42,053 nucleotides of DNA, taken from NCBI GenBank assembly GCA_032718475.1, contig JAUCBJ010001433.1:1-42053 (forward strand). Reading direction: 5' to 3'. Numbering within the stretch: the first letter of the stretch is position 1; every line of letters begins with the position of its first letter. This document shows positions 8,201-32,359 of this stretch, piece by piece. The translations under genes and the position numbers were made by a program. The DNA is from Nemertoderma westbladi (lineage: Eukaryota; Animalia; Xenacoelomorpha). Below the pieces are notes generated by a model. That model did no database searches, was not told the DNA's origin, and saw nothing but the letters and a program-made list of their open reading frames with translations.

Positions 8201-8449
8201 GGCCGGTAGCTGGCCGGCGACATCGGCGCGCCGTCCTCCGTCCCGTGTCGACTCATCTCCTTCTCCTTCCGTCTCGCTCTCTTTCTCTCTTGGCTCGACT
8301 TCGGGTTCCAGGCCCTCCTCGTCCTGTGCTTCCGGTTCGCCCGTTATCGATGGCTCCGGCGTCGTGGGCCTGTATCGTTTGGTCGCGGCCTCGCGGATCG
8401 TTAGGTCTTCGTCCGGGGTCCGCGGTGGTGTCTCGCCCGACTCACTCAT
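5298..8449 (-). CDS. Probable N-terminal extension of the same Gag, split into three ORFs at poly-G runs
   Basis: ORFs 6839-8449, 6240-6887 and 5410-6180 change frame exactly at homopolymer runs (plus-strand C10 6862-6871, C11 6288-6298, C10 5419-5428). Each downstream frame is open back to its run. The product is low complexity: acidic repeat, E/R/K coiled coil, Asn-rich tract, R/E/D-rich tract. Confidence 0.75.
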
Positions 8450-8594
8450 CTCGTCTGGTGGCTGATGGTTCGGCTAGCTAGGGTGGAGTTCTTTGTGTTT
8501 AACTGGGGCGGCAGCTCGTCTTTAGTTACTGTGACGGGATCCAGGAGGGATCCCGATTTATCCGATGTGGTATTTAGTCCACGCGTCCCCGCCG

Positions 8595-9067
8595 TGTATA
8601 AGAGTGAAATAAAGATAACTGAGTTCTGAAGTTCGGTGTATAATAATAGGTTATAGGATATAGATATATTGTGAATTATACGGTAGGCGGGATACGGTAA
8701 CTAAAGTCCCGTGATCCCCTAACTAAACTAATTGACTGTACCCTACGCTAGCACTGCTGCACTGAGATAACTGAATCACTGATTAATAGGTTATTGGTTA
8801 TATTGCACGGTGGCCTTACTGCTACTCAATCGATGCCATTCCCCCCCCTGATTGGTTAGTACCCTTGTTGGCGCCCCGTGGAGTATTCCCGTTCACTCCA
8901 CCTGTTCTCCCTGGGTTAGGGGTTTGGCCCCTGACCCTCTATTGTGTGCTTCCTTCCCACTCTTATTGGGATGGCACGAGTTGGTTAATTGCCCAATCTC
9001 GTGGCTCCCAATATTGCTTATCGGCTTATAACTTTATGGGGTGTTGGCGGGATTGAATAAGCTAACA
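8595..9067 (-). repeat. Putative 5' LTR of the BEL/Pao element
   Basis: Starts TG(TTAG) at 9067. Candidate ...TATACA ends are at 8637 or 8595. The inner boundary is uncertain without the second LTR. Candidate 5-bp target site ACCAA at 9068-9072. Confidence 0.6.
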
Positions 9068-10925
9068 ACCAATGAGACACCTCCAATGTTATATAGTGTC
9101 TCGTTGGAGATGTGTGTATTGTACTTGACACAATGAACCCGGCGTAGCATTCTTGTGAATGTGCCATCCAGAGATTGGGTGTCCTCAGCAGTTAGAGCCC
9201 AGCATGGACTCCCGTAGTGGAGTACTGGAACTACTGCTGCTCTAAATAATCGGACCTTAAGTTTCCGATTAATTCTCGGTGACTTCCAATCCTGGAAAGC
9301 CTATTCAAGGCTGCCCATGCCTTTCCCTTACGTATTCGAAGGCTGACTTCCGGATCCATGATCCCAGGTAACAGAAGTCGTCCACATGCTCAAGCATACC
9401 ATCCTTTGAGCTTATGCTCATCCGATCAGAGACTTGCTGAGGACTTTCAAAGTTAACTGTCAAAATTTTGGTCTTTCTGGAGTTAATAAAAAGACCAACA
9501 CTAGAAGCAGCATGTTCTAATGAGCTGAGGAGCCGTTGGGCTCCCTCTAATGATTCTGAGAGTACTCCTAAGTCATCAGCAAAGTCTAGATCAGTTAGGT
9601 ACTTGGCAGGATTTCCTCGACTTCTGGAGCCAGTAGGTGGAGTTATCATCACCCCATCATCATTATGATGATCTAAGGACATGCGTAGAACATAGTCAAC
9701 CACAATAATGAACAAGAATGGTGCAAGTGTGTCTCCTTGGAGGACGCCCCATAACACTTCAAATGGTTCTGTGTCATCGTCAACAGTAGACACAAATGTT
9801 GTCGAACCATCGTATACTGATCTGATTGCTGCAATAATTTCATCAGGAATCCCATATAATGAAAGTATGCTGAACATACGTGAGCGAGAGACTGAATCAA
9901 AGGCCTTGAAGAAGTCAACAAAGATAACAGCCATATGCCTGTCTTTCTTTTTTGATAATTCTTCAATTATCCTTCTAAGTGCCAAAATGGGCTCCATGGT
10001 CCCACGACCTTTACGGAACCCATTCTGATTTCCACGGAGCAGTCTCTCAATGGGATCCCTGATGCGATTTAATAGAATCCTATTGTATAGCTTTGCAGCA
10101 ATCGAGATCAATGAGATTCCCCGAAAAGAACCATAGAGTGTTAGGTTGCCCTTCTTGGGAACTGGCACCAACTTATTTGTTTTCATTTCTTGTGGGACTC
10201 TTGTTGTTCGGTACATGTCTACTATGATGGGATAGATGAGCTTTAAACACTCAGGTATTTTAAAGACCTCAGGGGGAACACCATCTACTCCACTGGCACG
10301 ATTGGTCTTAATGTTCCTTGCAGCAGCCTTCACTTCTGCAAAGGAGATATCGCCAATGGGAATATCTGGGAGTACAGACTCAGACACTTTCACTTCTATA
10401 AAGTTATCAGGCAAGACCCTGTCATTATTGAGGAGCTTTTCAAAGTGGGCCTTCCAACCATTGAGGCGATCGGCTGGTGATTCAGCCTTAACCTTGGTGG
10501 TTGGTTGGCTTTTCCGCCCAGTAACCAAGTTGGTCGATTTCCATGCCTGGGATGATTGCCTGCTGTCGCAAGCATCATTGATGGCATCAACCTGTTGGTT
10601 TATTAGCTCCTGTAGATTAACAGAGTACTGCCTGTTCAGGGACCTAGATGCAGCCTTAACTGCATTCTTGGCCGCTGTAGTCTGTTTGAGTCGGGACTCT
10701 TTCTGCGCCTTGTAGAGGTCATTTCGGCACTTCTGAATTTTGTTGTCAGTCCAGGGCGCCCGTTTCCTGTTTCGAGGGTATACAGTAACTGTTTCTGCAG
10801 CTGCTAACTTAACCGCCTCAGTGAAGGCAGTATAGCCCTCACAGTGATCTGCCGCCTCAGAGGCAAGAACCTCATACCTGTTGCTCAGCTGTAGTGTGAA
10901 GCTGGATCTCACACTGTCAAACACT
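9068..10925 (-). mobile_element. RTE-clade non-LTR retrotransposon, copy 1 (5'-truncated, interrupted by the BEL element)
   Basis: RT ORF 9305-10924 with 'QNGFRKGR', 'FVDFFKAFDSV', 'GVLQGDTLAPFLF', 'DFADDL', 'FCYLGS'. Near-identical to the copy at 40462-41614 but has a ~7-bp deletion near 9342 that shifts the frame. No endonuclease domain present. Confidence 0.92.
9305..10924 (-). pseudogene. Truncated LINE reverse transcriptase ORF
   Basis: 539-aa ORF with LINE RT motifs, lacking the N-terminal endonuclease and frameshifted after 'WIRKS'. Confidence 0.88.
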
Positions 10926-11410
10926 ACTGACTGATTAACAGACTACAGACAGTCAGGTTTGAGCGGGAAGGTTCAAACTTTAAAGCAAACTATCTCGGAA
11001 TTACATTTCACGATATTTCCATTTTTCAAAATACTACTCCTCCGCCGTTTTTCACCCAAATTCGATAATTTATGGCTCGTTTGAAAGGTTTTTTGAAAAA
11101 ATTCTTGAAAAATTATCCAGCACTTTTTTGAAATTTTTTTTTAATATTATTGAAAATTTTAATTAATTTAATTAATTTTAATTATTTAATTTAAGTTATT
11201 TACTTAAAAATTGAAAATTTAAAAAATCGGCTGAATAATTTTTGTAGAAACGAAGGTGCTGAGTCCAAAAAAGTGGGTTTCAAAAAAATTGAATGAATAT
11301 TAATGGACTAGTAGTGTTTTTAGTGAAATTATTAATTCCACCACTCGCCGCTAGAGGGGGACTTTCAAATATCCATTTGGGGGCTCTTTGGCCTTCCACA
11401 CGTTGGCTGA
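10926..11410. mobile_element. Possible old non-autonomous element remnant
   Basis: Degenerate ACTG/ACAG microsatellite at the LINE junction, AT-rich quasi-palindromic core, and a CCGCTAGAGGG motif near 11348 that is shared with the 13461-15024 element. Confidence 0.3.
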
Positions 11411-11460: not shown

Positions 11461-11919
11461 CTGTTTCAAAAACAACTCCCCTGAGGGGGTACCCCCCCCC
11501 CCCCCCCCCCCCCCTTAAAGCAATTATTATCCCTTGACTTAACCGTTGATATAGCTAGGAAACCCAATGTTAGTCTTCCGGACTGGAGGTTGTCTACTCG
11601 CTCCACCAAGACTTTCTCCCAACGCCAGTACTCCAAGGAGGCATTGGAGGAGGCCATTACTGCTGTTCTATGGAAACGTATACCAGTCAGGAAGGTCGCG
11701 GCTTTGTATAATATACCCAAGTCGACGCTATATGATAACATTAAAAGCGTCGCTGTCTCTGGTGAGATTAGAACCGCGGCGGAAAACCAAATTAATGACG
11801 TCGCTGTCAACCAATCACTCGAGACTACGTACGATTTAATACCGGAGTCTAAAAATGTGGATATATATGTTCATGATTTATATTTCAACGCTATAAAAAT
11901 TCATCCCTCTCCAGGGTAA
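11461..11919 (+). CDS. Putative terminal exon 1 encoding a pipsqueak-type HTH domain
   Basis: 'RQYSKEALEEAITAVLWKRIPVRKVAALYNIPKSTLYD' fits the psq HTH pattern. Candidate acceptor TTACTTACAG ends at 11460; it is in frame only if the C23 run (11492-11514) is really C24 or C21. The last codons run into a MITE relic. Confidence 0.65.
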
Positions 11920-12040
11920 ATCAACTCAAATAACAGCTGATTACTCGCAATAATAGAAATGTAACCTGTTATATGGACGTTAGTTTATTGTTTTGGTTAG
12001 AATAACGTGCCACTATTACTGTAACCTGTTCCTTTCCCTT
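11897..12040 (+). mobile_element. Internal fragment of the MITE family seen at 28711-28968
   Basis: 'TTCATCCCTCTCCAGGG...AATAACAGCTGATTACTC...AATAACGTGCCACT...GTAACCTG' closely matches ~28757-28890. Confidence 0.75.
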
Positions 12041-12730
12041 AATTGATAATTAACCATTGAGTGACACATTTATTCTCCGACATGGGATTTTCTTCAAGCC
12101 CCATCATATCTCCGGAATTTAGTGTCGAAATTCAGTGACAGGACATGCCACTGAATTAAGACGCTATATTCCGGGGCGCGGTGTATTGCTCTCATACACA
12201 CGTAATGTTTAATTGTTCAGTGTTCCGTTTATTGATATGTGATGTGCTTTTTTATTTTTTTCCTATTTATACGGTATCATATTATACTATTTTTAGTAAC
12301 CTCTACTGATTATTAGCTACTACTAATAATAATTTTGTTCGAGCATATAATATATACAGTATATCTATATATATATATATACATTTACGTTGTACCTCCG
12401 TTAATTTAGTTGTTGTAATAATTCTGTTTACCAATATATTTCTGTATTTTACAGTGTTTTAGTGATAGACTTCACGTCATTGGACTTCACGTTCATGGAC
12501 TTCATGTCAGTGCATTTTTTACTGTAGGATAATATATATTTTAAATCGTTTTAGGTAAATCTTATAATAATGATAATAGTTAATTAAATTTCATGATGAA
12601 TTTGTTTTTTTTAATAAACGAATGAGGCAATAGGTTTGTATAATGTCGGTTCGTAAGGAATTCTTCTAGACTCCTTTATGTTTGGTTTCAGTCCTACTGT
12701 CTGACACCTGGTATATCCTACTCTCTACAG

Positions 12731-13031
12731 TCATACAGACTCCCTGTTTTATTTGTCTAGAGGCGAGCGTTCTAATCACTACAGAGTTCCCTGCCGTTCC
12801 GAAGGCACAAAACGTCCCTTTCGCCAATACTCAGAGGAGACGCTAGAGGCGGCACTAAGAGCTGTTGTGGAAGATCACATGGGAATAATGCCGGCGGCGA
12901 GGAAGTTTAAAGTTCCTAAGTCTACTTTATACGACCGGTATAGAGCCAGACATGGGTCTTTTGGTAGAGCGTTGGTTAAAGACACAACAGTGGGGACTGT
13001 TGATGTTCTAGAACAATGGAATGATGGATAA
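12731..13031 (+). CDS. Putative terminal exon 2 encoding a pipsqueak-type HTH domain
   Basis: Acceptor CCTACTCTCTACAG (AG 12729-12730), then one base, then an open frame HTDSLFYLSRG...'RQYSEETLEAALRAVVEDHMGIMPAARKFKVPKSTLYDRYR'...stop at 13031. No transposase catalytic domain follows. Confidence 0.78.
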
Positions 13032-13535
13032 ATAAGATTCATTCTAGAGGAAAAACGTGCTTTTAATCATTACAGTGACTATTATAATATTGATAAATTA
13101 TTGCTTCTAGTTTTGTTTGTAATTTATTACTAAAACAGCCGACATATTTTTTAAATATATTTTTAAATGTATGTCTTTACCTGTTTTTTTTATTGCCTCA
13201 TATCTTTTATTAATTATGACTAATATTGAACGATTTACTATATGTACAATAACGTTCAGTGGAAGTGCATACAGCATATATTTGTGAGTTAAGATAAATT
13301 CTCCCAGTCAAATTTGATGAAAAAAAAACAATATATTTTACGACCCTGCTTGGGCTCATTTATGGAAAAAAGATCACCTTGATGTCATGGCGGTGAGAAA
13401 TCTCATATGTTTTGCTTTTAACAATGTTCTCACATGTGTTTAACATGGAATATTGTAACATGTGGGGCGAGCCACGAAGTTGGCGGAGCCTTAGCGAATT
13501 GACACTGTTAGGGGGTGGGTCAATTTATGCAAATA

Positions 13536-13603
13536 GTTGTCGTCGTCGTCGTCGTCGTCGTTGTCGTCGTCGTCGTTGTCGTCGTCGTCGTTGTCGTCGT
13601 CGT
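13536..13603. repeat. (GTC/GTT)n trinucleotide microsatellite
   Basis: Directly visible. Confidence 0.95.
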
Positions 13604-13729
13604 TACGATTTTGACATGCTAATAACTTTGTCGGATTTAAAGCTGCCAAGTTGAAAATTTGTAGGTATCAATATAAGCAAAAGTTGAGATTTTTGAGAGA
13701 CTTTCAGACACCATCAGTGCAATGGTCTC

Positions 13730-14921
13730 CCGCTAGAGGGCCACATGTCTAAACATTAAATGGCCACCCATTTCTTTGCTTTTAATCCGTTTAAGCTGAA
13801 ACTTGGGAAGTATGTACTAGACCATTAGCTGTAAATTTCAAAGGAGGCTAATCTGTCTGCAGTTCTCCAGTCTGCCGCTAGAGGGCGAAATGTCCCGAAT
13901 GTGAAATTATTCTTCCATTTAGTTGTTTATGATCTGATTACGCTGAAACTTGTCATATATGTACTAGATGACATCCTGAGTCTTTGTGTGGATTGTAATC
14001 GGTCCGAAGTTTTCCAGTCTCCCGCTAGAGGGCCACATGTCTAAACATTAAATGGCCACCCATTTCTTTGCTTTTAATCCGTTTAAGCTGAAACTTGGGA
14101 AGTATGTACTAGACCATTAGCTGTAAATTTCAAAGGAGGCTAATCTGTCTGCAGTTCTCCAGTCTGCCGCTAGAGGGCGAAATGTCCCGAATGTGAAATT
14201 ATTCTTCCATTTAGTTGTTTATGATCTGATTACGCTGAAACTTGTCATATATGTACTAGATGACATCCTGAGTCTTTGTGTGGATTGTAATCGGTCCGAA
14301 GTTTTCCAGTCTCCCGCTAGAGGGCCACATGTCTAAACATTAAATGGCCACCCATTTCTTTGCTTTTAATCCGTTTAAGCTGAAACTTGGGAAGTATGTA
14401 CTAGACCATTAGCTGTAAATTTCAAAGGAGGCTAATCTGTCTGCAGTTCTCCAGTCTGCCGCTAGAGGGCGAAATGTCCCGAATGTGAAATTATTCTTCC
14501 ATTTAGTTGTTTATGATCTGATTACGCTGAAACTTGTCATATATGTACTAGAAGACATCCTAAGTCTTTGTGTGGACAGTAATCGGTCCGGAGTTTTCGA
14601 GTCTGCCGCTAGAGGGCGAAATGTAGGAAAGTGATAACCTTTGCGAATTCCTTGATCTTAATCTATTTAAGCTGAATTTTGGAATATACAGTACCGGTAT
14701 GTACTAGACCACATGCCTCGTCTTTGTGAGGAAGGTGATCGATCCGTAGTTCTTTAATATGCCGCTAGAGGGCTAAATGTATGAAAGTGAAAACCTTCCA
14801 ACATTTCGTTATTTATGATCCGTCAATCGGAAACTTGGTAGATATGTAATAGACCATAGGCTGTGGCTTTGTAGGGAAACTAATCCTTCCTTCTTCAGTT
14901 ACCCAGTCTCCCGCTAGAGGG
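13730..14921 (+). repeat. Tandem array of ~146-bp monomers organised as a 292-bp dimer
   Basis: CCGCTAGAGGG recurs near 13730, 13875, 14022, 14167, 14314, 14459, 14606, 14763 and 14911. Alternate units are near-identical. Confidence 0.93.
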
Positions 14922-15452
14922 TTAACGTTTTCCGGGAAAATCTTCTCCTATGTTTTTATAATCCTTTCGAGTTGATACTTAGCATTAACTCATTTCACGT
15001 GCTGCGCGAAGGCCCCACTTCGTGTATATATATATATTGGAACATGGAAACGTGTTATTTAACTGCAATGAATAATAGCATTCCTTCATACATAGCGCTT
15101 TTTTATTGTTATATTTGATTGTGTTAACATGCCATCTTTGACAGATTACATTCCTCAATATGTCAACGCTTCAAGTTAAAATATAAAAATTAAATATTTG
15201 TTAAAACCACAATTGCACTGCGTTAAATCCACAATAAGCCTTTGGTACATGCCACAAGAGGATTATGTTATATGTCACAAAATGGCAGTGTTACATTTCA
15301 CATTAAGCCTTTGGTACATGCCACAAGAGGCAAATTGCCAGTGTTACATCTCACAATAGGCCTGTTTCACTTGCCAAAATTTGACAGTGTTACATGTTGC
15401 TGTAGTCATGTGTTGGTGTCACAATATTCCTGTGTTACGTGCATGCAATATT

Positions 15453-18400
15453 CGAGAGGAGCCTTCCTACTGCCTCAATTAGAGAGGAGCCTTCGGGTCG
15501 CCTCCGGTAGAGAGGAGCCTTCCGGTTGCATCCGGTAGTGAGGAACCCTTGGGTTGCCTTTGGTAGAGAGGGGCCTTTGGGTTGCTTCCTAGTGGAGGAG
15601 CCTTAAGCTTGCCTCCGTTAGAGAGGAGCCTTCGGGTTGCCTCTGTTAGAGGGGAGTCATTGGGTTGCCTCCAATAGAGAGGAGCCTTTGGGTTGCCTCC
15701 AGTAGAGGAGCCTTAAGCTTGCCTCCGGTCGAGAGGAGCCTTCGGGTTGCCTCTGTTAGCGATTAACCTTTTATTTGCCTCTGGTAGAGAGGATCCTTTG
15801 GGTTGCCTCTGTTAGAGAGGAGCCTTTGGGTTGCCTCCAGTAGAGGAGCCTTAAGCTTGCCTCCGGTAGTGAGGAGCCTTTGGGTTGCCTCCAGTAGAGA
15901 GGAGCCTTTGGGTTGCCTCTGGTAGTGAGGAGTCTTTGGGTTGCCTCCGGTAGAGAGTAGCCTTCCGGTTGCATCCGGTAGTGAGGAACCCTTGGGTTGC
16001 CTTTGGTAGAGAGGGGCCTTTGGGTTGCTTCCTAGTGGAGGAGCCTTAAGCTTGCCTCCGTTAGAGAGGAGCCTTCGGGTTGCCTCTGTTAGAGGGGAGT
16101 CATTGGGTTGCCTCCAATAGAGAGGAGCCTTTGGGTTGCCTCCAGTAGAGGAGCCTTAAGCTTGCCTCCGGTCGAGAGGAGCCTTCGGGTTGCCTCTGTT
16201 AGCGATTAACCTTTTATTTGCCTCTGGTAGAGAGGATCCTTTGGGTTGCCTCTGTTAGAGAGGAGCCTTTGGGTTGCCTCCAGTAGAGGAGCCTTAAGCT
16301 TGCCTCCGGTAGTGAGGAGCCTTTGGGTTGCCTCCAGTAGAGAGGAGCCTTTGGGTTGCCTCTGGTAGTGAGGAGTCTTTGGGTTGCCTCCGGTAGAGAG
16401 TAGCCTTCCGGTTGCATCCGGTAGTGAGGAACCCTTGGGTTGCCTTTGGTAGAGAGGGGCCTTTGGGTTGCTTCCTAGTGGAGGAGCCTTAAGCTTGCCT
16501 CCGGTCGAGAGGAGCCTTCGGGTTGCCTCTGTTAGCGATTAACCTTTTATTTGCCTCTGGTAGAGAGGATCCTTTGGGTTGCCTCTGTTAGAGAGGAGCC
16601 TTTGGGTTGCCTCCAGTAGAGGAGCCTTAAGCTTGCCTCCGGTAGTGATGAGCCTTTGGGTTGCCTCCAGTAGAGAGGAGCCTTTGGGTTGCCTCTGGTA
16701 GTGAGGAGTCTTTGGGTTGCCTCCAGTAGAGGAGCCTTTGGGTTGCCTCTGGTAGTGAGGAGCCTTTGGGTTGCCTCCAGTAGAGGAGCCTTTGGGTTGC
16801 CTCTGGTAGTGAGGAGCCTTTGGGTTGCCTCCAGTAGAGGAGCCTTTGGGTTGCCTCTGGTAGTTAGGTGCATTTGGGTTGCCTCCAGTAGAGGAGCCTT
16901 AAGCTTCCCTCCGGTAGAGAGGAGCCTTCGGGTTGCCTCTGTTAGAGGGGAGCCATTGGGTTGCCTCTGGTAGTGAGGAGTCTTTGGGTTGCCTCCAGTA
17001 GAGGAGCCTTTGGGTTGCCTCTGGTAGTGAGGGGCCTTTGGGTTGCCTCCAGTAGAGGAGCCTTTGGGTTGCCTCTGGTAGTGAGGAGCCTTTGGGTTGC
17101 CTCCAGTAGAGGAGCCTTTGGGTTGCCTCTGGTAGTGAGGAGCCTTTGGGTTGCCTCTGGTAGTGAGGAGTCTTTGGGTTGCCTCCAGTAGAGGAGCCTT
17201 TGGGTTGCCTCTGGTAGTGAGGGGCCTTTGGGTTGCCTCCAGTAGAGGAGCCTTTGGGTTGCCTCTGGTAGTGAGGAGCCTTTGGGTTGCCTCCAGTAGA
17301 GGAGCCTTTGGGTTGCCTCTGGTAGTTAGGAGCCTTTGGGTTGCCTCCAGTAGAGGAGCCTTAAGCTTGCCTCCGGTAGAGAGGAGCCTTTGGGTTGCCT
17401 CCAGTAGAGGAGCCTTAATCTTGCCTCCGGTAGAGAGGAGCCTTCGGGTTGCCTCTGTTAGAGAGGAGCCTTTAGTTGGCCTCCAGTAGAGTGGAGCCTT
17501 TGGGTTGCCTCTGGTAGTGAGGAGCCTTTGGGTTGCCTCCAGTGGAGGTGCCTTTCGGTTGCCTCTAATAGTGAGGAGCCTTTGGGTTGCCTCCAGTAGA
17601 GAGGAGCCTTTGGGTTGCCTCCAGTAGAGGAGCCTTAAGCTTGCCTCCGGTAGAGAGGAGCCTTCGGGTTGCCTCTGTTAGCGATGAACCTTTTAGTGCC
17701 TCTGGTAGAGAGGATCCTTTGGGTTGCCTCTGGTAGAGAGGAGCCTTTGGGTTGCCTCCAGTAGAGGAGCCTTAAGCTTGCCTACGGTAGAGAGGAGCCT
17801 TCGGGTTGCCTCTGTTAGAGAGGAGCCTTTGGGTTGCCTCCAGTAGAGAGGAGCCTTTGGGTTGCCTCTGGTAGTGAGGAGCCTTTGGGTTGCCTCCAGT
17901 AGAGGAGCCTTAAGCTTGCCTCCGGTAGGGAGGAGCCTTCGGGTTGCCTCTGTTAGAGAGGAGCCTTTGGGTTGCCTCCAGTAGAGAGGAGCCTTTGGGT
18001 TGCCTCTGGCAGTGAGGAGCCTTTGGGTTGCCTCCAGCAGAGGAGCCTTTGGGTTGCCTCTGGTAATTAGGAGCCTTTGGGTTGCCACCAGTAGAGGAGC
18101 CTTAAGCTTGCCTCCGGTAGAGATGAGCCATCGGGTTGCCTCTGTTAGAGAGGAGCCTTTGGGTTGCCTCCAGTAAAGAGGAGCCTTTGGGTTGCCTCTT
18201 GTAGTGAGGAGCCTTTGGGTTGCCTCAAGTAGAGGAGCCTTTGGGTTCCCTCTGGTAGTGAGGAGCCTTTGGGTTGCCTTCAGTAGAGGAGCCTTAAGCT
18301 TGCCTCCGATAGAGAGGAGCCTTCGGGTTGCCTCTGTTAGCGATGAACCTTTGGGTTGCCTCTGGCAGAGAGGAGCCTTAGCGTTGCCTCCGGTAGAGAG

Positions 18401-21400
18401 CAGCCTTCGGGTTTCCTCCGGTAGAGAGGAGCCTTTGGGTTGCCTCCAGTACAGGAGCCTTAAGTTTGCCTCCAGTAGAGAGGAACCTTCGGGTTGCCTC
18501 CAGTAGAGAGGAACCTTCGGGTTGCCTCCATTAGAGAGGAATATTCGGGTTGCCTCCATTAGAGAGGAACCTTCGGGTTGCCTCTTGTAGAGGGGAACCT
18601 TCGGGTTGCCTCCATTAGAGAGGGAGCCTTCGGGTTGCCTCCACTAGATAGGAGCCTTCGGGTTGCCTCCAGTAGTGAGGAGCCTTCGGGTTGCCTCCAG
18701 TAGAGAGGAGCCTTCGGGTTGCCTCCAGTAGAGAGGAGCCTTCGGGTTGCCTCCAGTAGAGAGGAGCCTTCGGGTTGCTTCTGGTAGTGAGGAGCCTTTG
18801 GGTTGCCTCCAGTAGAGAGGAGCCTTTGGGTTGCCTCCAGTAGAGGAGCCTTAAGCTTGCCTCCGGTAGAGAGGATCCTTCGGGTTGCCTCTGTTAGCGA
18901 TGAACCTTTTAGTTGCCTCTGGTAGAGAGGAGCCTTTGGGTTGCCTCCAGCAGAGGAGCCTTAAGCTTGACTCCGTCAGAGAGGTTGCTTCTTGTATAGG
19001 GGTTGCCCAGAGTAGAAAGGAGCCCTCGGATTGGCTCCAGTAGAAAGGAGCCTTTGGGTTGCCTCCAGCAGAAAAGAACCTTCGGGTTGCTTCTTGTACA
19101 GGGGAGCCTTCGGGTCGCCTCCAGTAGAGAGGAGCCTTCGGGTCGCTTCCAGTAGAGAGGAGCCTTTGGGTTGCCTCCAGTAGAAAGGAGCCTTCGGGTT
19201 ACTTCTTGTAGAGGGGAGTCTTCGGGTTGCCCAGAGTAGCAAGGAGCCCTCGTGTTGGCTCCAGTAGAAAGGAGCCTTTGGGTTGCATCCAGTAGAAAGG
19301 AACCTTCGGGTTGCTTTTTGTAGAGGGGAGCCTTCGGGTTGCCCAGAGTAGAAAGGAGCCTTTGGGTTGCCTCCAGTAGAAAGGAGCCTTTGGGTTGCCT
19401 CCAGTAGAAAGGAGCCTTCGGGTTACTTCTTGTAGAGGGGAGCCTTCGGGTTTCCCAGAGTAGAAAGGAGCCCTCGGGTTGGCTCCAGTAGAAAGGATTC
19501 TTTGGGTTGCCTCCAGTAGAAAGGAACATTCGGGTTGCTTTTTGTAGAGGGGAGCCTTCGGGTTGCCCAGAGTAGAAAGGAGCCCTCGGGTTGGCTCCAG
19601 TAGAAAGGAGCCTTTGGGTTGCGTCCAGTAGAAAGAACCTTCGGGTTGCTTCTTGTACAGGGGAGCCTTCGGGTTGCCCAGAGTAGAAAGGATCCCTCGG
19701 ATTGGCTCCAGTAGAAAGGAGCCTTTGGGTTGCCGCCAGTAGAAAAGAACCTTCGGGTTGCTTCTTGTGCAGGGGATCGTTCGGGTCGCCTCCAGTAGAG
19801 AGGAGCCTTTGGGTTGCCTCCAGTAGAAAGGAGCCTTCGGGTTACTTCTTGTAGAGGGGAGCCTTCGGGTTGCCTCCAGTAGAAAGGAGCCTTCGGGTTG
19901 CCTCCAGTAGAAAGGAGCCTTCGGGTTACTTCTTGTAGAGGGGAGTCTTCGTGTTGCTTCTTGTAGAGGGGAGCCTTTGGGTTGCCTCCGGTAGAGGAGC
20001 CCTCGGGTTACTTCTTGTAGAGGGGAGTCTTCGGGTTGCTTCTTGTAGAGGGGAGCCTTTGGGTTGCTTCTTGTAGAGGGGAGCCTTTGGGTTGCCTCCA
20101 GTAGAAAGGAGCCTTCGGGTTGCCTCCAGTAGAAAGGAGCCTTCGGGTTGCCTCCAGTAGAAAGGAGCCTTCGGGTTACTTCTTGTAGAGGGGAGCCTTC
20201 GGGTTACTTCTTGTAGAGGGGAGCCTTCGGGTTGCCTCTTGTAGAGGGGAGCCTTCGGGTCGCCTCCAGTAGAGAGGAGCCTTTGGGTTGCCTCCAGTAG
20301 AAAGGAGCCTTCGGGTTACTTCTTGTAGAGGGGAGCCTTCGGGTTGCCTCCAGTAGAAAGGAGCCTTTGGGTTGCCTCCAGTATAAAGGAGCCTTCGGGT
20401 TACTTCTTGTAGAGGGGAGTCTTCGGGTTGCTTCTTGTAGAAGGGAGCCTTTGGGTTGCCTCCGGTAGAGGAGCCTTCGGGTTACTTCTTGTAGAGGGGA
20501 GTCTTCGGGTTGCTTCTTGTAGAAGGGATCCTTTGGGTTGCCTCCAGTAGAAAGGAGCCTTCGGGTTGCCTCCAGTAGAAAGGAGCCTTCGGGTTGCCTC
20601 CAGTAGAAAGGAGCTTAAGGTTGCTTCTTGTAGAGGGGAGCCTTTGGGTTGCCTCCGGTAGAGGAGCCTTCGGGTTACTTCTTGTAGAGGGGAGTCTTCC
20701 GGTTGCTTCTTGTAGAGGGGAGTCTTTGGGTTGCCTCCAGTAGAAAGGAGCGTTTGGGTTGCCTCCAGTAGAAAGTATCCTTCGGGTTGCCTCCAGTAGT
20801 GAGGACCCTTTGGGTTGCCTCCAGTAGAGGAGCCTTTGGGTTGCCTCTGGTAGTTAGGAGCCTTTGGGTTGCCTCCAGTAGAGGAGCCTTAAGCTTGCCT
20901 CCGGTAGAGAGGAGCCTTCGGGTTGCCTCCTGTTAGAGAGGAGCCTTTAGTTGGCCTCCAGTAGAGAGGAGCCTTTGGGTTGCCTCTGGTAGTGAGGAGC
21001 CTTTGGGTTGCCTCCGGTAGAGAGGAGCCTTCGGGTTGCCTCTGTTAGAGGGGAGCCATTGGGTTGCCTCTGGTAGTGAGGAGTCTTTGGGTTGCCTCCA
21101 GTAGAGGAGCCTTTGGGTTGCCTCTGGTAGTGAGGGGCCTTTGGGTGGCCTCCAGTAGAGGAGCCTTTGGGTTGCCTCTGGTAGTGAGGCGCCTTTGGGT
21201 TGCCTCCAGTAGAGGAGCCTTTGGGTTGCCTCTGGTAGTGAGGAGCCTTTGGGTTGCCTCTGGTAGTGAGGAGTCTTTGGGTTGCCTCCAGTAGAGGAGC
21301 CTTTGGGTTGCCTCTGGTAGTGAGGGGCCTTTGGGTTGCCTCCAGTAGAGGAGCCTTTGGGTTGCCTCTGGTAGTGAGGAGCCTTTGGGTTGCCTCCAGT

Positions 21401-24400
21401 AGAGGAGCCTTTGGGTTGCCTCTGGTAGTTAGGAGCCTTTGGGTTGCCTCCAGTAGAGGAGCCTTAATCTTGCCTCCGGTAGAGAGGAGCCTTCGGGTTG
21501 CCTCTGTTAGAGAGGAGCCTTTAGTTGGCCTCCAGTAGAGAGGAGCCTTTGGGTTGCCTCTGGTAGTGAGGAGCCTTTGGGTTGCCTCCAGTGGAGGAGC
21601 CTTTCGGTTGCCTCTAATAGTGAGGAGCCTTTGGGTTGCCTCCAGTAGAGAGGAGCCTTTGGGTTGCCTCCAGTAGAGGAGCCTTAAGCTTGCCTCCGGT
21701 AGAGAGGAGCCTTCGGGTTGCCTCTGTTAGCGATGAACCTTTTAGTTGCCTCTGGTAGAGAGGATCCTTTGGGTTGCCTCTGGTAGAGAGGAGCCTTTGG
21801 GTTGCCTCCAGTAGAGGAGCCTTAAGCTTGCCTACGGTAGAGAGGAGCCTTCGGGTTGCCTCTGTTAGAGAGGAGCCTTTGGGTTGCCTCCAGTAGAGAG
21901 GAGCCTTTGGGTTGCCTCTGGTAGTGAGGAGCCTTTGGGTTGCCTCCAGTAGAGGAGCCTTAAGCTTGCCTCCGGTAGGGAGGAGCCTTCGGGTTGCCTC
22001 TGTTAGAGAGGAGCCTTTGGGTTGCATCCAGTAGAGAGAAGCCTTTGGGTTGCCTCTGGCAGTGAGGAGCCTTTGGGTTGCCTCCAGTAGAGAGGAGCCT
22101 TTGGGTTGCCTCTGGTAGTGAGGAGCCTTTGGGTTGCCTCCAGTAGAGGAGCCTTAAGCTTGCCTCCGGTAGGGAGGAGCCTTCGGGTTGCCTCTGGTAG
22201 TGAGGAGCCTTTGGGTTGCCTCCAGTAAAGAGGAGCCTTTGGGTTGCCTCTTGTAGTGAGGAGCCTTTGGGTTGCCTCAAGTAGAGGAGCCTTTGGGTTC
22301 CCTCTGGTAGTGAGGAGCCTTTGGGTTGCCTTCAGTAGAGGAGCCTTAAGCTTGCCTCCGATAGAGAGGAGCCTTCGGGTTGCCTCTGTTAGCGATGAAC
22401 CTTTGGGTTGCCTCTGGCAGAGAGGAGCCTTAGCGTTGCCTCCGGTAGAGAGCAGCCTTCGGGTTTCCTCCGGTAGAGAGGAGCCTTTGGGTTGCCTCCA
22501 GTACAGGAGCCTTAAGTTTGCCTCCAGTAGAGAGGAACCTTCGGGTTGCCTCCAGTAGAGAGGAACCTTCGGGTTGCCTCCATTAGAGAGGAATATTCGG
22601 GTTGCCTCCATTAGAGAGGAACCTTCGGGTTGCCTCTTGTAGAGGGGAACCTTCGGGTTGCCTCCATTAGAGAGGGAGCCTTCGGGTTGCCTCCAGTAGT
22701 GAGGAGCCTTCGGGTTGCCTCCAGTAGAGAGGAGCCTTCGGGTTGCCTCCAGTAGAGAGGAGCCTTCGGGTTGCCTCCAGTAGAGAGGAGCCTTCGGGTT
22801 GCTTCTGGTAGTGAGGAGCCTTTGGGTTGCCTCCAGTAGAGAGGAGCCTTCGGGTTGCCTCCAGTAGAGAGGAGCCTTCGGGTTGCTTCTGGTAGTGAGG
22901 AGCCTTTGGGTTGCCTCCACTAGATAGGAGCCTTCGGGTTGCCTCCAGTAGTGAGGAGCCTTCGGGTTGCCTCCAGTAGAGAGGAGCCTTCGGGTTGCCT
23001 CCAGTAGAGAGGAGCCTTCGGGTTGCCTCCAGTAGAGAGGAGCCTTCGGGTTGCTTCTGGTAGTGAGGAGCCTTTGGGTTGCCTCCAGTAGAGAGGAGCC
23101 TTTGGGTTGCCTCCAGTAGAGGAGCCTTAAGCTTGCCTCCGGTAGAGAGGATCCTTCGGGTTGCCTCTGTTAGCGATGAACCTTTTAGTTGCCTCTGGTA
23201 GAGAGGATCCTTTGGGTTGCCTCTGGTAGAGAGGAGCCTTTGGGTTGCCTCCAGCAGAGGAGCCTTAAGCTTGACTCCGTCAGAGAGGTTGCTTCTTGTA
23301 TAGGGGTTGCCCAGAGTAGAAAGGAGCCCTCGGATTGGCTCCAGTAGAAAGGAGCCTTTGGGTTGCCTCCAGCAGAAAAGAACCTTCGGGTTGCTTCTTG
23401 TACAGGGGAGCCTTCGGGTCGCCTCCAGTAGAGAGGAGCCTTCGGGTCGCTTCCAGTAGAGAGGAGCCTTTGGGTTGCCTCCAGTAGAAAGGAGCCTTCG
23501 GGTTACTTCTTGTAGAGGGGAGTCTTCGGGTTGCCCAGAGTAGCAAGGAGCCCTCGTGTTGGCTCCAGTAGAAAGGAGCCTTTGGGTTGCATCCAGTAGA
23601 AAGGAACCTTCGGGTTGCTTTTTGTAGAGGGGAGCCTTCGGGTTGCCCAGAGTAGAAAGGAGCCTTTGGGTTGCCTCCAGTAGAAAGGAGCCTTTGGGTT
23701 GCCTCCAGTAGAAAGGAGCCTTCGGGTTACTTCTTGTAGAGGGGAGCCTTCGGGTTTCCCAGAGTAGAAAGGAGCCCTCGGGTTGGCTCCAGTAGAAAGG
23801 ATTCTTTGGGTTGCCTCCAATAGAAAGGAACATTCGGGTTGCTTTTTGTAGAGGGGAGCCTTCGGGTTGCCCAGAGTAGAAAGGAGCCCTCGGGTTGGCT
23901 CCAGTAGAAAGGAGCCTTTGGGTTGCGTCCAGTAGAAAGAACCTTCGGGTTGCTTCTTGTACAGGGGAGCCTTCGGGTTGCCCAGAGTAGAAAGGATCCC
24001 TCGGATTGGCTCCAGTAGAAAGGAGCCTTTGGGTTGCCTCCAGTAGAAAAGAACCTTCGGGTTGCTTCTTGTGCAGGGGATCGTTCGGGTGCCTCCAGTA
24101 GAGAGGAGCCTTTGGGTTGCCTCCAGTAGAAAGGAGCCTTCGGGTTACTTCTTGTAGAGGGGAGCCTTCGGGTTGCCTCCAGTAGAAAGGAGCCTTCGGG
24201 TTGCCTCCAGTAGAAAGGAGCCTTCGGGTTACTTCTTGTAGAGGGGAGTCTTCGGGTTGCTTCTTGTAGAGGGGAGCCTTCGGGTCGCCTCCAGTAGAGA
24301 GGAGCCTTTGGGTTGCCTCCAGTAGAAAGGAGCCTTCGGGTTACTTCTTGTAGAGGGGAGCCTTCGGGTTGCCTCCAGTAGAAAGGAGCCTTCGGGTTGC

Positions 24401-25630
24401 CTCCAGTAGAAAGGAGCCTTCGGGTTACTTCTTGTAGAGGGGAGTCTTCGGGTTGCTTCTTGTAGAGGGGAGCCTTTGGGTTGCCTCCGGTAGAGGAGCC
24501 CTCGGGTTACTTCTTGTAGAGGGGAGTCTTCGGGTTGCTTCTTGTAGAGGGGAGCCTTTGGGTTGCTTCTTGTAGAGGGGAGCCTTTGGGTTGCCTCCAG
24601 TAGAAAGGAGCCTTCGGGTTGCCTCCAGTAGAAAGGAGCCTTCGGGTTGCCTCCAGTAGAAAGGAGTCTTCGGGTTACTTCTTGTAGAGGGGAGTCTTCG
24701 GGTTACTTCTTGTAGAGGGGAGCCTTCGGGTTGCCTCTTGTAGAGGGGAGCCTTCGGGTTGCCTCCAGTAGAGAGGAGCCTTTGGGTTGCCTCCAGTAGA
24801 AAGGAGCCTTCGGGTTACTTCTTGTAGAGGGGAGCCTTCGGGTTGCCTCCAGTAGAAAGGAGCCTTCGGGTTGCCTCCAGTATAGAGGAGCCTTCGGGTT
24901 ACTTCTTGTAGAGGGGAGTCTTCGGGTTGCTTCTTGTAGAGGGGAGCCTTTGGGTTGCCTCCAGTAGAAAGGAGCCTTCGGGTTGCCTCCAGTAGAAAGG
25001 AGCCTTCGGGTTGCCTCCAGTAGAAAGGAGCTTAAGGTTGCTTCTTGTAGAGGGGAGCCTTTGGGTTGCCTCCGGTAGAGGAGCCTTCGGGTTACTTCTT
25101 GTAGAGGGGAGTCTTCGGGTTGCTTCTTGTAGAGGGGAGTCTTTGGGTTGCCTCCAGTAGAAAGGAGCGTTTGGGTTGCCTCCAGTAGAAAGTATCCTTC
25201 GGGTTGCCTCCAGTAGAGAGGAGCCTTCGGGTTGCCTCCAGTAGAAAGGAGCCTTCGGGTTGCCTCTGGTAGAGGGGAGCCTTCGGGTTGCCTCCTGTAC
25301 AGGGGAGCCTTCGGGTCGCCTCCAGTAGAGAGGAGCCTTCGGGTCGCTTCCAGTAGAGAGGAGCCTTTGGGTTGCCTCCAGTAGAAAGGAGCCTTCGGGT
25401 TACTTCTTGTAGAGGGGAGTCTTCGGGTTGCCCAGAGTAGCAAGGAGCCCTCGTGTTGGCTCCAGTAGAAAGGAGCCTTTGGGTTGCATCCAGTAGAAAG
25501 GAACCTTCGGGTTGCTTCTTGTAGAGGGGAGCCTTCGGGTTACTTCTTGTAGAGGGGAGCCTTCGGGTTGCTTCTTGTAGAGGGGAGCCTTCGGGTTGCC
25601 CAGAGTAGAAGGAGCCTCTCGTTGTCTCCA
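15453..25630. repeat. ~10 kb GC-rich satellite/minisatellite of 28-bp and 26-bp units
   Basis: Consensus GAGGAGCCTT(C/T)GGGTTGCCTCCAGTAGA; roughly 370 units estimated from length. Higher-order repeats of 443 bp and ~4.05-4.3 kb are visible from duplicated ORF-track peptides. Confidence 0.97.
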
Positions 25631-25667
25631 GTGTCGTCCATGTTTTCCTTTTTCCTTTTAACCACAG

Positions 25668-25890
25668 ATTGTCGCCTGTTTACGAGCGGTACTCTGGCCT
25701 ACCGATAAATCCGTCAGACGGGCAACAGAGTCTCTGTAAAGGCGCTCAAAGGATTCGATTCCTGAAACTGTACTGCCCCGATCGCTATCAGAAGCATCTG
25801 GAGAAAAACCGTCAACGGGTCCAGCGAAGTCGCGAAAAACGACGCACGATGGCGATAAGCGATGAAACAGGCGTCCATGGTCACATCTGA
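25668..25890 (+). CDS. Putative terminal exon 3 encoding a basic helical (bZIP-basic-like) motif
   Basis: Strong acceptor TTTTCCTTTTTCCTTTTAACCACAG (AG 25666-25667), one base, then LSPVYERY...'RIRFLKLYCPDRYQKHLEKNRQRVQRSREKRR'...TGA at 25890. AATAAA at 25973. Confidence 0.7.
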
Positions 25891-25972
25891 GAGGTTACCC
25901 TTGAACCAAAGAGCTAAGGGAACTTTGTAAACCCAACTGAATAACAACATACATTTCTTGCGTGTTTTTCTT

Positions 25973-25978
25973 AATAAA
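25973..25978 (+). promoter_or_regulatory. Candidate polyadenylation signal for exon 3
   Basis: AATAAA 83 bp after the stop, followed by T/GT-rich sequence. Confidence 0.45.
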
Positions 25979-26969
25979 TCGCGTTTTATTGTATAAAATT
26001 AATTATAAGGTTTTTTAAATATCTGTTGAGATATTGACTGAATTATTGTAGAAATCTTGTTAACGCAATGCTAAGTTAATTAATTTAACAGTAAAGCACA
26101 ATAATAGTAGCACAGCTCATTTGTTAACACCACCTTCATTATAAAGGCAGAATATATGGCCAATAACCCCCCCCCCCCCCCCCCCCCCCCCCCGGCACTA
26201 TTATTTTTTCTAATCTCAATGAGATTGCATGAAACATCAAACAGAGATAGTTTCACCTACCTCCTTCTTGCTGGGTGAGCCAGAATTTATATTTTCGCTT
26301 TCATATTTTAGCTACAACAGTTTGAAAATGGTGTCTCCCATGATATTGCACCGCAGTTATTCTTCGACCTTATAGAGAATTGTTGGTACGGATAAGAAAG
26401 CTGACCGCCGCGCAAGGATTCCAAATATGTAACACAATCTGAATTTCATTCTAAATAACTTGAGATACCGACGTGTACTAAAGTAGCATGATGGGTGGAT
26501 GCCAACCATATACAATACAATAGGCCTAATAATAATGTACAAATAAAAATCGAATACAATAATGTAAACCATTTGAGAATGAATAGTGAGGGATTTGAGA
26601 TTTAATATAGATTTTTTAATGTAGATATTTAAATATAATATAGATTTTTTACTTTTATTGCTGTCTGTCCTTCATACTGCTTTACACTGAATCTTTCGTA
26701 GCAAAAGCTACAACTATTTAAAGAAAATGTGACATGGCACAATTTTCAAATTTTGTTATTGAAATTAAGGGTAGCTTCGGTGGAAATTCTAGAAATACAA
26801 GATTGACAATTTTGGAGGTTAATCAGGGCACATGAATAAATTGCGTGAGCGTATCCAAAATGGGCCATAAAAGTGTCCCAAACGTAACGGAGGTTTTTTT
26901 TTTATCAGAAAACGCGAACTGATAAAGATTTAGATCATCACATCTATTCACTTATTTAGTAAAGACATT

Positions 26970-27119
26970 GCTTAAAATATTATAATTTATTGTTTTGATT
27001 AGAACGTGCTGTAACCTGGCTTAAAATAATATAATTTATTGTTTTGATTAGAACGTGCTGTAACCTGGCTTAAAATATTATAATTTATTGTTTTGATTAG
27101 AACGTGCTGTAACCTGCTT
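26970..27119. repeat. Three tandem copies of a 49-bp unit
   Basis: CTTAAAATA...GATTAGAACGTGCTGTAACCTG starts at 26971, 27020 and 27069. Confidence 0.93.
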
Positions 27120-27997
27120 CAATTAATTTTCATCAAAAACATCTATTTAAATTTTCAAATTAATTGTTTGATATAATAATACAACATTTGTGTGTATCTC
27201 ATAGTTTTAAAGGCGACAAAATATTTAGGACCGCTTTTCACGGCAACATTTACCAGTTTTTCTAACTAGAGAGCTTTCTACTTCGATCTATAATATTTTG
27301 ACCTATAGTCGGTCACTTCAATGCCACCATTAAACAGCAATACTTGGGATTTTCAATATTATGGAGATAAAACACGAACATCAATTTATACTCAGATTTT
27401 TGCATGGGGGGGTGTGGTAATACTGATAAGCAGTATTACTGGTGGAAGGAGTCTTCCTAGCTGAGAATCTTTGGGGTAAATAGGTTAGTCTTGATCTTCA
27501 CATATATTCAATAATGATATTGAGCAAGTAATAAACAGGTAACCAGTTAATGCCCCAAAGTCCGGGGTCACGTGAACAGTAATCTCGATATAGTGTCAGT
27601 AGCTAATAATCAGTCGTCTTGCCATAATAATCCTACCATAATAACTTTGCGTTTACTATATTGGTAAAGATATAAGACTAATATTCTTCACATGGGCGTT
27701 TTTATATAAGGCCGGGCCGGGCCAGTCCGGGCCTACTTAAGCTTCATTTTTGAGGTTCTTAAAATTTGAGTTCCAATATGATAATAGATTGCGCACATAT
27801 TGGTTTTGGGTTTTCGAAGTGCATAATAGGGATTAATCCCGTAACACATGAAAAACGGAAGACAAACTTTGAGAACTTATTGGGGGAATCTGCGTACTTT
27901 ACCTGAGTGTATTTGTTTATTTTGTATGACGTCGCCTGTTTGTGATTGTTTACTTTCTATGACGTTATCATGTGTCATGTTATCATGTATTTCACAG

Positions 27998-28142
27998 GCG
28001 CTATCAACATGACTTGAGTAAGTCTCGTACTCGGTATCGCCAGTTTAAAGAAACCAATCCTGAGCGCTATGAGGAATATCTTAATTACATGAGAAACCGA
28101 CAGAGGGCGTATCGAGAGAGGATGAAGGGACATAGAGACTAA
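27998..28142 (+). CDS. Putative terminal exon 4, similar to exon 3 (not in the ORF track)
   Basis: Acceptor ATGTATTTCACAG (AG 27996-27997), one base, then RYQHDLSKSRTRYRQFKETNPERYEEYLNYMRNRQRAYRERMKGHRD*. Aligns with exon 3 without gaps. AATAAA at 28345. Confidence 0.68.
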
Positions 28143-28630: not shown

Positions 28631-29270
28631 GGCCCGTTTCCGCACTGCTTTTTTATGTGAGGTAATCTGAGATTTTTTTTAAGCTGTTTCTCTAACTTGT
28701 TTTGCAGATAGGGGGTGGGGGGGGGGGGGGGGGGGGGGGACTGGACGCAATTAATATTCATCCCTCTCCAGGGGAAATTCGACGCAAATAACAGCTGATT
28801 ACTCTCAAAAAATAAAACTGTAACCTGTTCTATTGCGTTTAGTTTATTGTTTGGGTTAAAATAACGTGCCACTGTAACCTGCTCCTTTCCCCTATTTGAG
28901 GATTTAACATTGAGGCGGGATATTAATTCGCCATGGCGGGTTTTGCGTCCAGTCCCCCCCTACCCCCCTGTCTCTTATATTTATGAGCTATTTTTCAAGC
29001 TTCTTATTGAGAAGCTTTTTTTGAGCTTCTGTCATGCTTTTTTGGCTAGATATTGTCATAATCAAGTCGTGAATTGTTACATGCCTTTATCTAACGGTCG
29101 CCAAGTTAAAATGATTACGAAATTAGTAATATAGACATGTATCTAGAATTATTTTGATTATTATTATCCGTTATTTCAGCTCCACTGTTTTTTGGTGGAG
29201 CTTTGATTCTGAGATTTGAGGTTTTATCATTCCAAAATTATCAGATTCGTCTTGAAGCGATTTAAGCGAT
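28631..29270 (+). mobile_element. Partial copy of the Harbinger-like MITE family
   Basis: Left end GGCCCGTTTCCGCACTGCTTTTTT as at 38624. 29218-29260 resembles 41884-41925. Interrupted by another MITE. Confidence 0.62.
28711..28968. mobile_element. MITE with G-rich terminal inverted repeats
   Basis: GGGGGTGGG(n)GACTGGACGCAA ... TTGCGTCCAGTCCCCCCCTACCCCCC. Flanks TA/TG suggest a degenerate TA duplication (Tc1/mariner-pogo type, inferred). Confidence 0.75.
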
Positions 29271-30990: not shown

Positions 30991-31239
30991 TGGCGAACCC
31001 AACCCCAGATCACTAACCAAACATCATGCATCACCCCGGTTATTTAATGGAGACAGTTAAGTCAACATCAATATACACCAGTGATTTAGTAAATAATTAA
31101 TTAAATCAAACAATTAATGCAACATTAATTAATCAGATAAAAAAATATTGTTTAATTTTACCTATAAAAAGTTTTCGTGGCCTAATTGAAGTAAGAAATT
31201 CCGGATTATTATTCAACAGTATAATTTACTTTGGATGTA

Positions 31240-32359
31240 TACGCAAATCAATGTATATGCAAATTAATGTATATGCAAATTAATGCATATGCAAATTAAT
31301 GCATATCCAAAGAAATGTATATGCAAATTAATGTATTTGCAAATTAATGTATATGAAAATCAATGTATATGCAAATTAATAATGTATATGCTAATTAATG
31401 TATATGCAAATTAATGTAGATATGCAAATTAATGTATATGAAAATCAATGTATATGCAAATTAATAATGTATATGCTAATTAATGTATATGCAAATTAAT
31501 GTAAATATGCAAATTAATGTATATGAAAATTAATGTATCTGCAAATTAATGCATATCCAAAGAAATGTATATGCAAATTAATGTATATGCAAATTAATGT
31601 ATATGCAAATTAATGTATATGAAAATCAATGTATATGCAAATTAATGTATATGCAAATTAATAATGTATATGCAAAGAAATGTATATGCAAATTAATGTA
31701 TATGCAAATTAATGTATATGCAAACTAATGTATATGCAAATTAATGCATATCCAAAGAAATGTATATGCAAATTAATGTATATGAAAATCAATGTATATG
31801 CAAATTAATAATGTATATGCTAATTAATGTATATGCAAATTAATGCATATCCAAAGAAATGTATATGCAAATTAATGTATATGCAAATTAATGTATATGA
31901 AAATCAATGTATATGCAAATTAATAATGTATATGCTAATTAATGTATATGCAAATTAATGTAGATATGCAAATTAATGTATATGAAAATCAATGTATATG
32001 CAAATTAATAATGTATATGCTAATTAATGTATATGCAAATTAATGTAAATATGCAAATTAATGTATATGAAAATTAATGTATCTGCAAATTAATGCATAT
32101 CCAAAGAAATGTATATGCAAATTAATGTATATGCAAATTAATGTATATGCAAATTAATGTATATGAAAATCAATGTATATGCAAATTAATGTATATGCAA
32201 ATTAATAATGTATATGCAAAGAAATGTATATGCAAATTAATGTATATGCAAATTAATGTATATGCAAACTAATGTATATGCAAATTAATGCATATATGAA
32301 ATTAATGTATGTGCAAATTAATGTAGATATGCAAATTAATGTATATGCAAAGTAATGCA
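31240..32359. repeat. 16-bp AT-rich minisatellite (AATGTATATGCAAATT)n
   Basis: Directly visible, roughly 65-70 units. A 544-bp higher-order duplication is marked by GCATATCCAAAG at 31301/31845 and 31551/32095. Confidence 0.96.

Follow-up and report, generated by a model that had tools for sequence, protein, structure and literature searches.

Contig JAUCBJ010001433.1 was analyzed over 42,053 nt (the window), which consists of repeat-rich animal DNA, about 16 kb of it not obviously repeat. Four coding units reside on its plus strand, at 11461..11919 (unit 1), 12731..13031 (unit 2), 25668..25890 (unit 3) and 27998..28142 (unit 4), and are discussed here as last exons that a single transcription-factor gene may use alternatively. 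Their positions, as proposed in a first-pass annotation of the sequence, were borne out: ACAG precedes each unit, each ends in a stop codon (11917-19, 13029-31, 25888-90 and 28140-42), no in-frame ATG is found between acceptor and domain in any of the four, and exactly one base stands ahead of the first full codon in units 2-4. Reading frames were chosen by domain homology, independently of phase. The annotation had assigned a psq helix-turn-helix (HTH) to two units and a shared basic helix to the other two, and both assignments hold, units 1 and 2 scoring above the Pfam HTH_psq cutoff, units 3 and 4 being homologous in both a shuffle test and a BLASTP comparison. Searching 1043 window open reading frames (ORFs) of at least 25 codons with profiles of both types revealed no further unit above noise on either strand; all four units are on the plus strand, and none was found on the minus strand.

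The HTH_psq domain resides at 11635..11751 in unit 1 (29.9 bits, expect value E 4.4e-7) and at 12831..12947 in unit 2 (40.5 bits, E 2.2e-10; the Pfam cutoff is 20.4 bits). The two units are identical at 0.56, 0.60 and 0.36 of first, second and third codon positions over 55 codons, and 13 of their 22 identical residues are specified by different codons. Unit 2 retrieved 147 proteins in a full HMMER search, and tandem psq repeats are usual among them. BTB was found by Pfam in 2 of the 52 relatives scanned; our own profiles, run on all 147, marked 23 as BTB-like and 25 as Tc5-like, five of the latter having served as seeds. Ranked by single-domain score, the top 25 matches of unit 2 include 10 proteins with Tc5, 23 with psq in the first 70 residues, and none with BTB. 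The corresponding figures for unit 1 are 9, 13 and 1, in a set selected by unit 2. These counts assign the psq ends to the pogo-transposase N-terminal type, and by the same comparison the psq domains are closer to pogo-transposase N-termini than to BTB-psq proteins. The best match of unit 2 is the N-terminal psq of pogo transposases, HG..GR tail included. A transposase origin is stated for psq factors in the available text of PMC10027918, and the pogo-type psq ends agree with it.

Transposases of the pogo superfamily combine a psq HTH, a Tc5 HTH and a DDE domain; units 1 and 2 have the N-terminal psq type and, unlike these proteins, lack ATG, Tc5, DDE and clear inverted ends. No Tc5 or DDE remnant was detected behind units 1 and 2, either by tblastn with the 147 relatives or by the Tc5 profile. 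Inverted pairs around unit 2 are short, AT-rich and 71-83% matched, found among 51 pairs in 2.5 kb, and none makes convincing element ends. A weak Tc5-like stretch at 27763-27903 (+), which lies just 5' of the acceptor of unit 4, falls short of significance (E 0.11); it may be an old pogo relic. A word-index homologue search with unit 2 returned nothing at near or longer lengths. A 97-residue psq ORF from another assembly (P0113) lacks an ATG and has a Phe/Leu-rich front resembling a translated pyrimidine tract; it may be an end exon of a similar kind.

Units 3 and 4 share 17 of 41 residues (BLASTP E 1e-6), an alignment score reached by none of 2000 shuffles, and are reciprocal best matches among the window ORFs (67 vs. 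40 for the next). Identity by codon position is 0.44, 0.67 and 0.38 over 39 codons, and different codons encode 11 of the 17 identical residues. Within each pair of units, residues have been kept while third positions drifted, which argues for constraint at the protein level; the psq pair and the basic-helix pair are not similar to each other. The single-sequence fold of unit 3 features two helices broken at a Pro common to unit 4 (mean predicted local distance difference test score 77, predicted template modelling score 0.45).

As in the basic region of bZIP proteins of the ATF-2 type, Asn and Arg are eight residues apart in the basic helix of both units, in a register taken from a comparison with ATF-2 that is not significant (E 1.5-2.3). 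Unlike bZIP proteins, units 3 and 4 have two alanines replaced, an extra preceding helix with the conserved Pro kink, and no leucine zipper, the stops falling 17 and 6 residues past the Arg and Leu heptads being absent. Unit 3 matches Pfam bZIP_2 at 17.1 bits, below the cutoff of 22.3, and unit 4 has no match. DNA binding by the basic helix is predicted. Metagenome contigs gave no relative of the helix (0 of 347), no Foldseek match was obtained, and no PDB sequence matched below E 0.99. A phage Mu-type transposase in viral contigs (one locus from 22 stretches) was considered as a relative, and rejected as a chance match (36 residues at 33%). In the atlas, the neighbours found for units 3 and 4 (0.88 and 0.92) are hypothetical viral or bacterial proteins of small size; recognition is low, and they serve as leads only. 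Judged by these comparisons, the basic helix of units 3 and 4 fits no placed family.

Splice acceptors were scored with a hand-set matrix, and the 2812 plus-strand AGs of the window were ranked. Acceptors at 12761, 25668 and 27998 rank 10, 2 and 12, respectively. Unit 2 has a second, poorer acceptor at 12731 (rank 58), the one named in the first-pass annotation. All four are in phase 2, with the frame open into the domain. In non-repeat DNA (16,351 nt), 8 of 825 plus-strand AGs score at least 4.5, a threshold picked after the scores had been seen, and three of the eight head units 2-4 in open frame; the chance of such an open acceptor within 120 nt of a random position is 2.4%. At a score of at least 4.0, the plus-strand acceptors followed by at least 47 open codons are 3 of 11, exactly those of units 2-4; on the minus strand they are 1 of 7, without a Pfam match. 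The coincidence of acceptor and open frame at units 2-4 goes, on this scoring, beyond chance. No donor above 2 bits was found inside units 2-4. The non-repeat DNA between the units contains neither a donor above 5 bits nor an ATG-bearing exon; no private upstream exon is thus evident. AATAAA signals lie 82 nt past the stop of unit 3 (25973) and 223 nt past that of unit 4 (28365).

The remainder of the window is largely made up of mobile elements and tandem repeats. A BEL/Pao long terminal repeat retroelement (102-8473, minus strand) has four overlapping ORFs and a long Pfam-free region upstream of pol. The best identity of its pol is 35%, and the named matches among 120 listed are from fish, echinoderms, a cnidarian, a barnacle, a clam and insects. 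All three junctions between its four ORFs contain a run of C10-11, hence homopolymer lengths in the assembly look unreliable. Longer homopolymers, of 21-27 C or G bases, were noted at five places (11492, 26167, 28717, 33027 and 39784). Three pieces of an RTE-like long interspersed nuclear element family, 84-95% identical, are found at 9067-10942 (-), 35139-35645 (-) and 40400-41612 (+), and are CpG-poor (0.46 vs. 0.77-0.99 in adjoining non-coding DNA; the CpG ratio ranges from 0.46 to 1.39 across window segments). A 28-bp satellite (15471-25632, about 10 kb and 366 copies) lies between units 2 and 3, and stops some 35 nt short of the acceptor of unit 3. Rfam matches and tRNA genes are missing in the window.

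A 16-bp satellite at 31235-32357 (about 68 copies) contains ATGCAAAT, which we take to be the octamer motif. In a tandem repeat at 13725-14930, units of 145 and 147 bp alternate, each with CCGCTAGAGGG (9 copies), presumably akin to the CTCF core motif; an extra copy of CCGCTAGAGGG is found at 11348, 113 nt ahead of unit 1. A (GTC)n tract precedes this tandem repeat, an arrangement we assume to be a trait of Helentron-like non-autonomous elements. The sequence TAGGCCTA occurs seven times in the window. A miniature inverted-repeat transposable element (MITE) with G/C-tailed inverted ends was noted at 28711-28968, 11888-12061 and 26970-27127, and an internal piece of it is tandemly repeated after unit 3. 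Cassette duplication might have explained the repeat found 3' of units 1, 3 and 4, but this was rejected because the repeat is this MITE. A 29-bp hairpin (12112-12174, 83% complementary, 5-nt loop) lies 3' of the unit 1 stop.

Genes with a BTB domain and many variable 3' DNA-binding exons offer a precedent for such an arrangement (PMC11426971, PMC4667647, in the parts available): in lola and mod(mdg4), common exons are joined to 20-31 variable 3' exons (the same papers and PMC13490949, likewise in part), and TTK-BTB factors with HTH/psq ends and many isoforms are described in arthropods in the available text of PMC11426971. A further precedent is the capture of transposase HTHs by F-box genes (PMC12062965, available part). 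As in lola, mod(mdg4) and TTK-BTB genes, the units form a one-strand row of start-less, stop-ended sequences, each with a small DNA-binding module, with acceptors of the same phase in three of the four. The ends of lola are mostly C2H2 and those of mod(mdg4) FLYWCH, whereas the array described here has psq domains and an unclassified basic helix; moreover, some acceptor exons of mod(mdg4) are on the opposite strand, and the array has no such units. The first-pass annotation had compared the locus to a mod(mdg4)/lola-like system. The layout of terminal exons stands for units 2-4 as far as the letters tell; C2H2 and FLYWCH ends are absent (Pfam recognized HTH_psq in two units, bZIP_2 weakly in one and nothing in the fourth), and the array was therefore not filed as lola or mod(mdg4). 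The link to these genes is one of analogy only: neither BTB nor another common exon is seen in the window, the domains are of other types, and the psq domains score nearer to pogo transposases than to BTB-psq proteins. The units may also be compared to host-transposase fusion genes such as KRABINER and SETMAR, in which a transposase DNA-binding domain lies behind an acceptor and is usable as an alternative end (10.1101/2020.05.07.082677, available text). Unlike those single vertebrate captures, as the same text presents them, the array has several ends of two types in a row, with only the first HTH kept.

We consider it moderately likely that a single transcription-factor gene uses the four start-less units as its alternative last exons, and the row of alternative last exons is probably real and functional. 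Sequence support is good for three units; unit 1 is uncertain. In favor of this reading are the presence of two unrelated module types on the same strand and the phase common to units 2-4. A common 5' part ending in a phase-2 donor would reside beyond base 1, at a distance of more than 11 kb, because retroelements and repeats take up the first 11.4 kb of the window. In each transcript it would be joined in cis to a single unit, each end being closed by its own stop and a unit-specific poly(A) site. The resulting isoforms would have the same head and a different DNA target, reached through one of two psq HTHs or one of two basic helices. The psq ends may derive from pogo-transposase N-termini, captured via an acceptor located 5' of the transposase start, the remainder having been lost; the basic ends may be a second captured or duplicated module, and each type of end would have been duplicated. 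The weakest step is that the zipperless helix would act as a bZIP basic region, the dimer being supplied by the common N-terminal domain. Judging by bZIP binding in general, a basic helix without a zipper would need a head that dimerizes, as BTB does. The odds that the common N-terminal domain is BTB are about even.

Several results weigh against alternative last exons. No splice junction was observed, exon use being read from the DNA alone, and no common exon is visible in the window, nor did Pfam detect BTB in any of the 39 frames of the window that were scanned (14 + 25). The same phase across three units is, taken alone, a 1-in-9 chance event; this figure and the post hoc threshold leave the joint acceptor signal strong, but with no formal P value. 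BTB is missing from the top 25 relatives of unit 2, AATAAA and ATTAAA are absent within 509 nt of the stop of this unit, and the codon-position constraint could date from a mobile-element life of the units. Most of the difficulties concern unit 1. The first-pass annotation had described a pyrimidine-rich tract before each ACAG, and had proposed that unit 1 too would be in phase 2 were its C run off by one. The former does not apply to unit 1, whose acceptor at 11461 is not pyrimidine-rich and ranks 842 of 2812; the latter holds for an error in one direction. As assembled, 11461 is in phase 0, and three-frame translation meets an in-frame TGA at 11482. The C23 run at 11492..11514 breaks the frame between this acceptor and the domain (the open frame of the unit extends over 11485-11919), and one C more gives phase 2, one fewer phase 1. 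Since the phase depends on an error of either direction in the run, unit 1 gives no support to the shared phase, and the layout as first proposed is supported for units 2-4, by acceptors, phase, lack of ATG and own stops, with unit 1 set apart. AGs in all three phases follow the run ahead of the domain (alternative acceptors 11521 in phase 0, 11555 in phase 1, and 11559, 11574 and 11589 in phase 2). The stop of unit 1 lies within the decayed MITE copy at 11888..12061 (82% identical to 28745-28914), to which the unit also owes its final codons and a phase-2 GT at 11916, and a poly(A) signal is found only 664-694 nt beyond the stop, with AATAAA at 12613.

It is unlikely, in our estimate, that the units are mobile-element relics of separate origin, with native acceptors and unspliced to a host gene, units 1 and 2 being pogo-like N-termini, units 3 and 4 a small basic transposon or Polinton-like protein. 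The window is mostly repeats, the best relatives of unit 2 are rich in N-terminal psq and Tc5, and the atlas leads for units 3 and 4 point to small viral and bacterial proteins. A scan of metagenomes for psq sequences yielded 11 loci from 158 stretches, and in none of the 8 loci examined was an exon array or BTB found. At three of the eight (L002, and the near-identical L003 and L004, hence two independent cases), an acceptor-like site precedes the ATG of a psq-Tc5 ORF. An acceptor alone is consequently no proof of host use, a further point against last exons of a host gene. Yet the pre-ATG acceptor cuts both ways, being expected of a relic and also the route of capture by hosts: in 8 of 9 traced captures of transposase DNA-binding domains, the acceptor used was situated a short way 5' of the transposase ORF (10.1101/2020.05.07.082677, in the text available). 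Moreover, the native sites at the metagenome loci are, by eye, in phase 0, vs. phase 2 in units 2-4. Relics would not be expected to agree in strand and phase if unrelated, nor to keep a stop-free frame from acceptor to domain, as units 2-4 do, with no ATG in any of the four units. Neither a transposase body nor clear inverted ends are present, and the paralogues are intact though third positions are saturated.

Quite unlikely is an arrangement in which unit 1 is an internal exon joined to unit 2, forming a tandem psq-psq end and reducing the ends to three (1+2, 3 and 4). Two donor-like sites in unit 1 would allow the junction in the frame of unit 2, a phase-1 GT just 3' of the domain (11762..11763, 99.8th percentile), which fits the phase-1 acceptor 12739, and the phase-2 GT at 11916 (99.0th percentile), which fits 12731 or 12761. 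The prevalence of tandem psq repeats among the 147 relatives, and the lack of a poly(A) signal near unit 1, agree with this arrangement. However, the 11916 donor is in the MITE copy, and a sister copy has no GT there; the frame of unit 1 has no stop for about 50 codons beyond the 11762 donor, and the AATAAA at 12613 could terminate the unit. About as unlikely is a tandem cluster of small genes, each unit ending a gene that has a promoter and a first exon to itself, or a set of acceptor transcripts trans-spliced as in mod(mdg4): variable exons of mod(mdg4) have independent promoters (PMC13490949) and psq genes underwent separate expansions in several animal lineages (PMC10027918; both in the parts available), but the non-repeat DNA between units offers no strong donor or ATG-bearing exon, the stop of unit 1 and unit 2 are just 812 nt apart, every unit is on one strand, and trans-splicing of the conserved type is reported only in Diptera and Lepidoptera in the available text of PMC4667647. 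Nothing in the window points to trans-splicing.

The paper searches, which leave out most subscription papers, listed no account of a mixed psq/basic-helix array, or of a lola-like array outside arthropods. If the units are alternative last exons, the unclassified basic-helix ends would be new; the layout with switchable ends is already known from fly lola. It is rather unlikely, though worth stating, that a non-arthropod animal built a lola-like switchable locus independently from mobile-element parts, with two ends representing an undescribed zipperless bZIP-like helix-kink-helix family that dimerizes via the shared N-terminal domain. Were the host an arthropod and the head a BTB domain, the locus would be one more example, with an unusual tail. 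Joining one protein head to many DNA-binding tails allows a single gene to retarget a chromatin or transcription complex, and detailed descriptions of such loci come almost only from flies and moths. Captured transposase HTHs next to an unclassified basic helix would, if the row of last exons is what it appears to be, mean that loci of this kind are landing sites for unrelated mobile-element domains.

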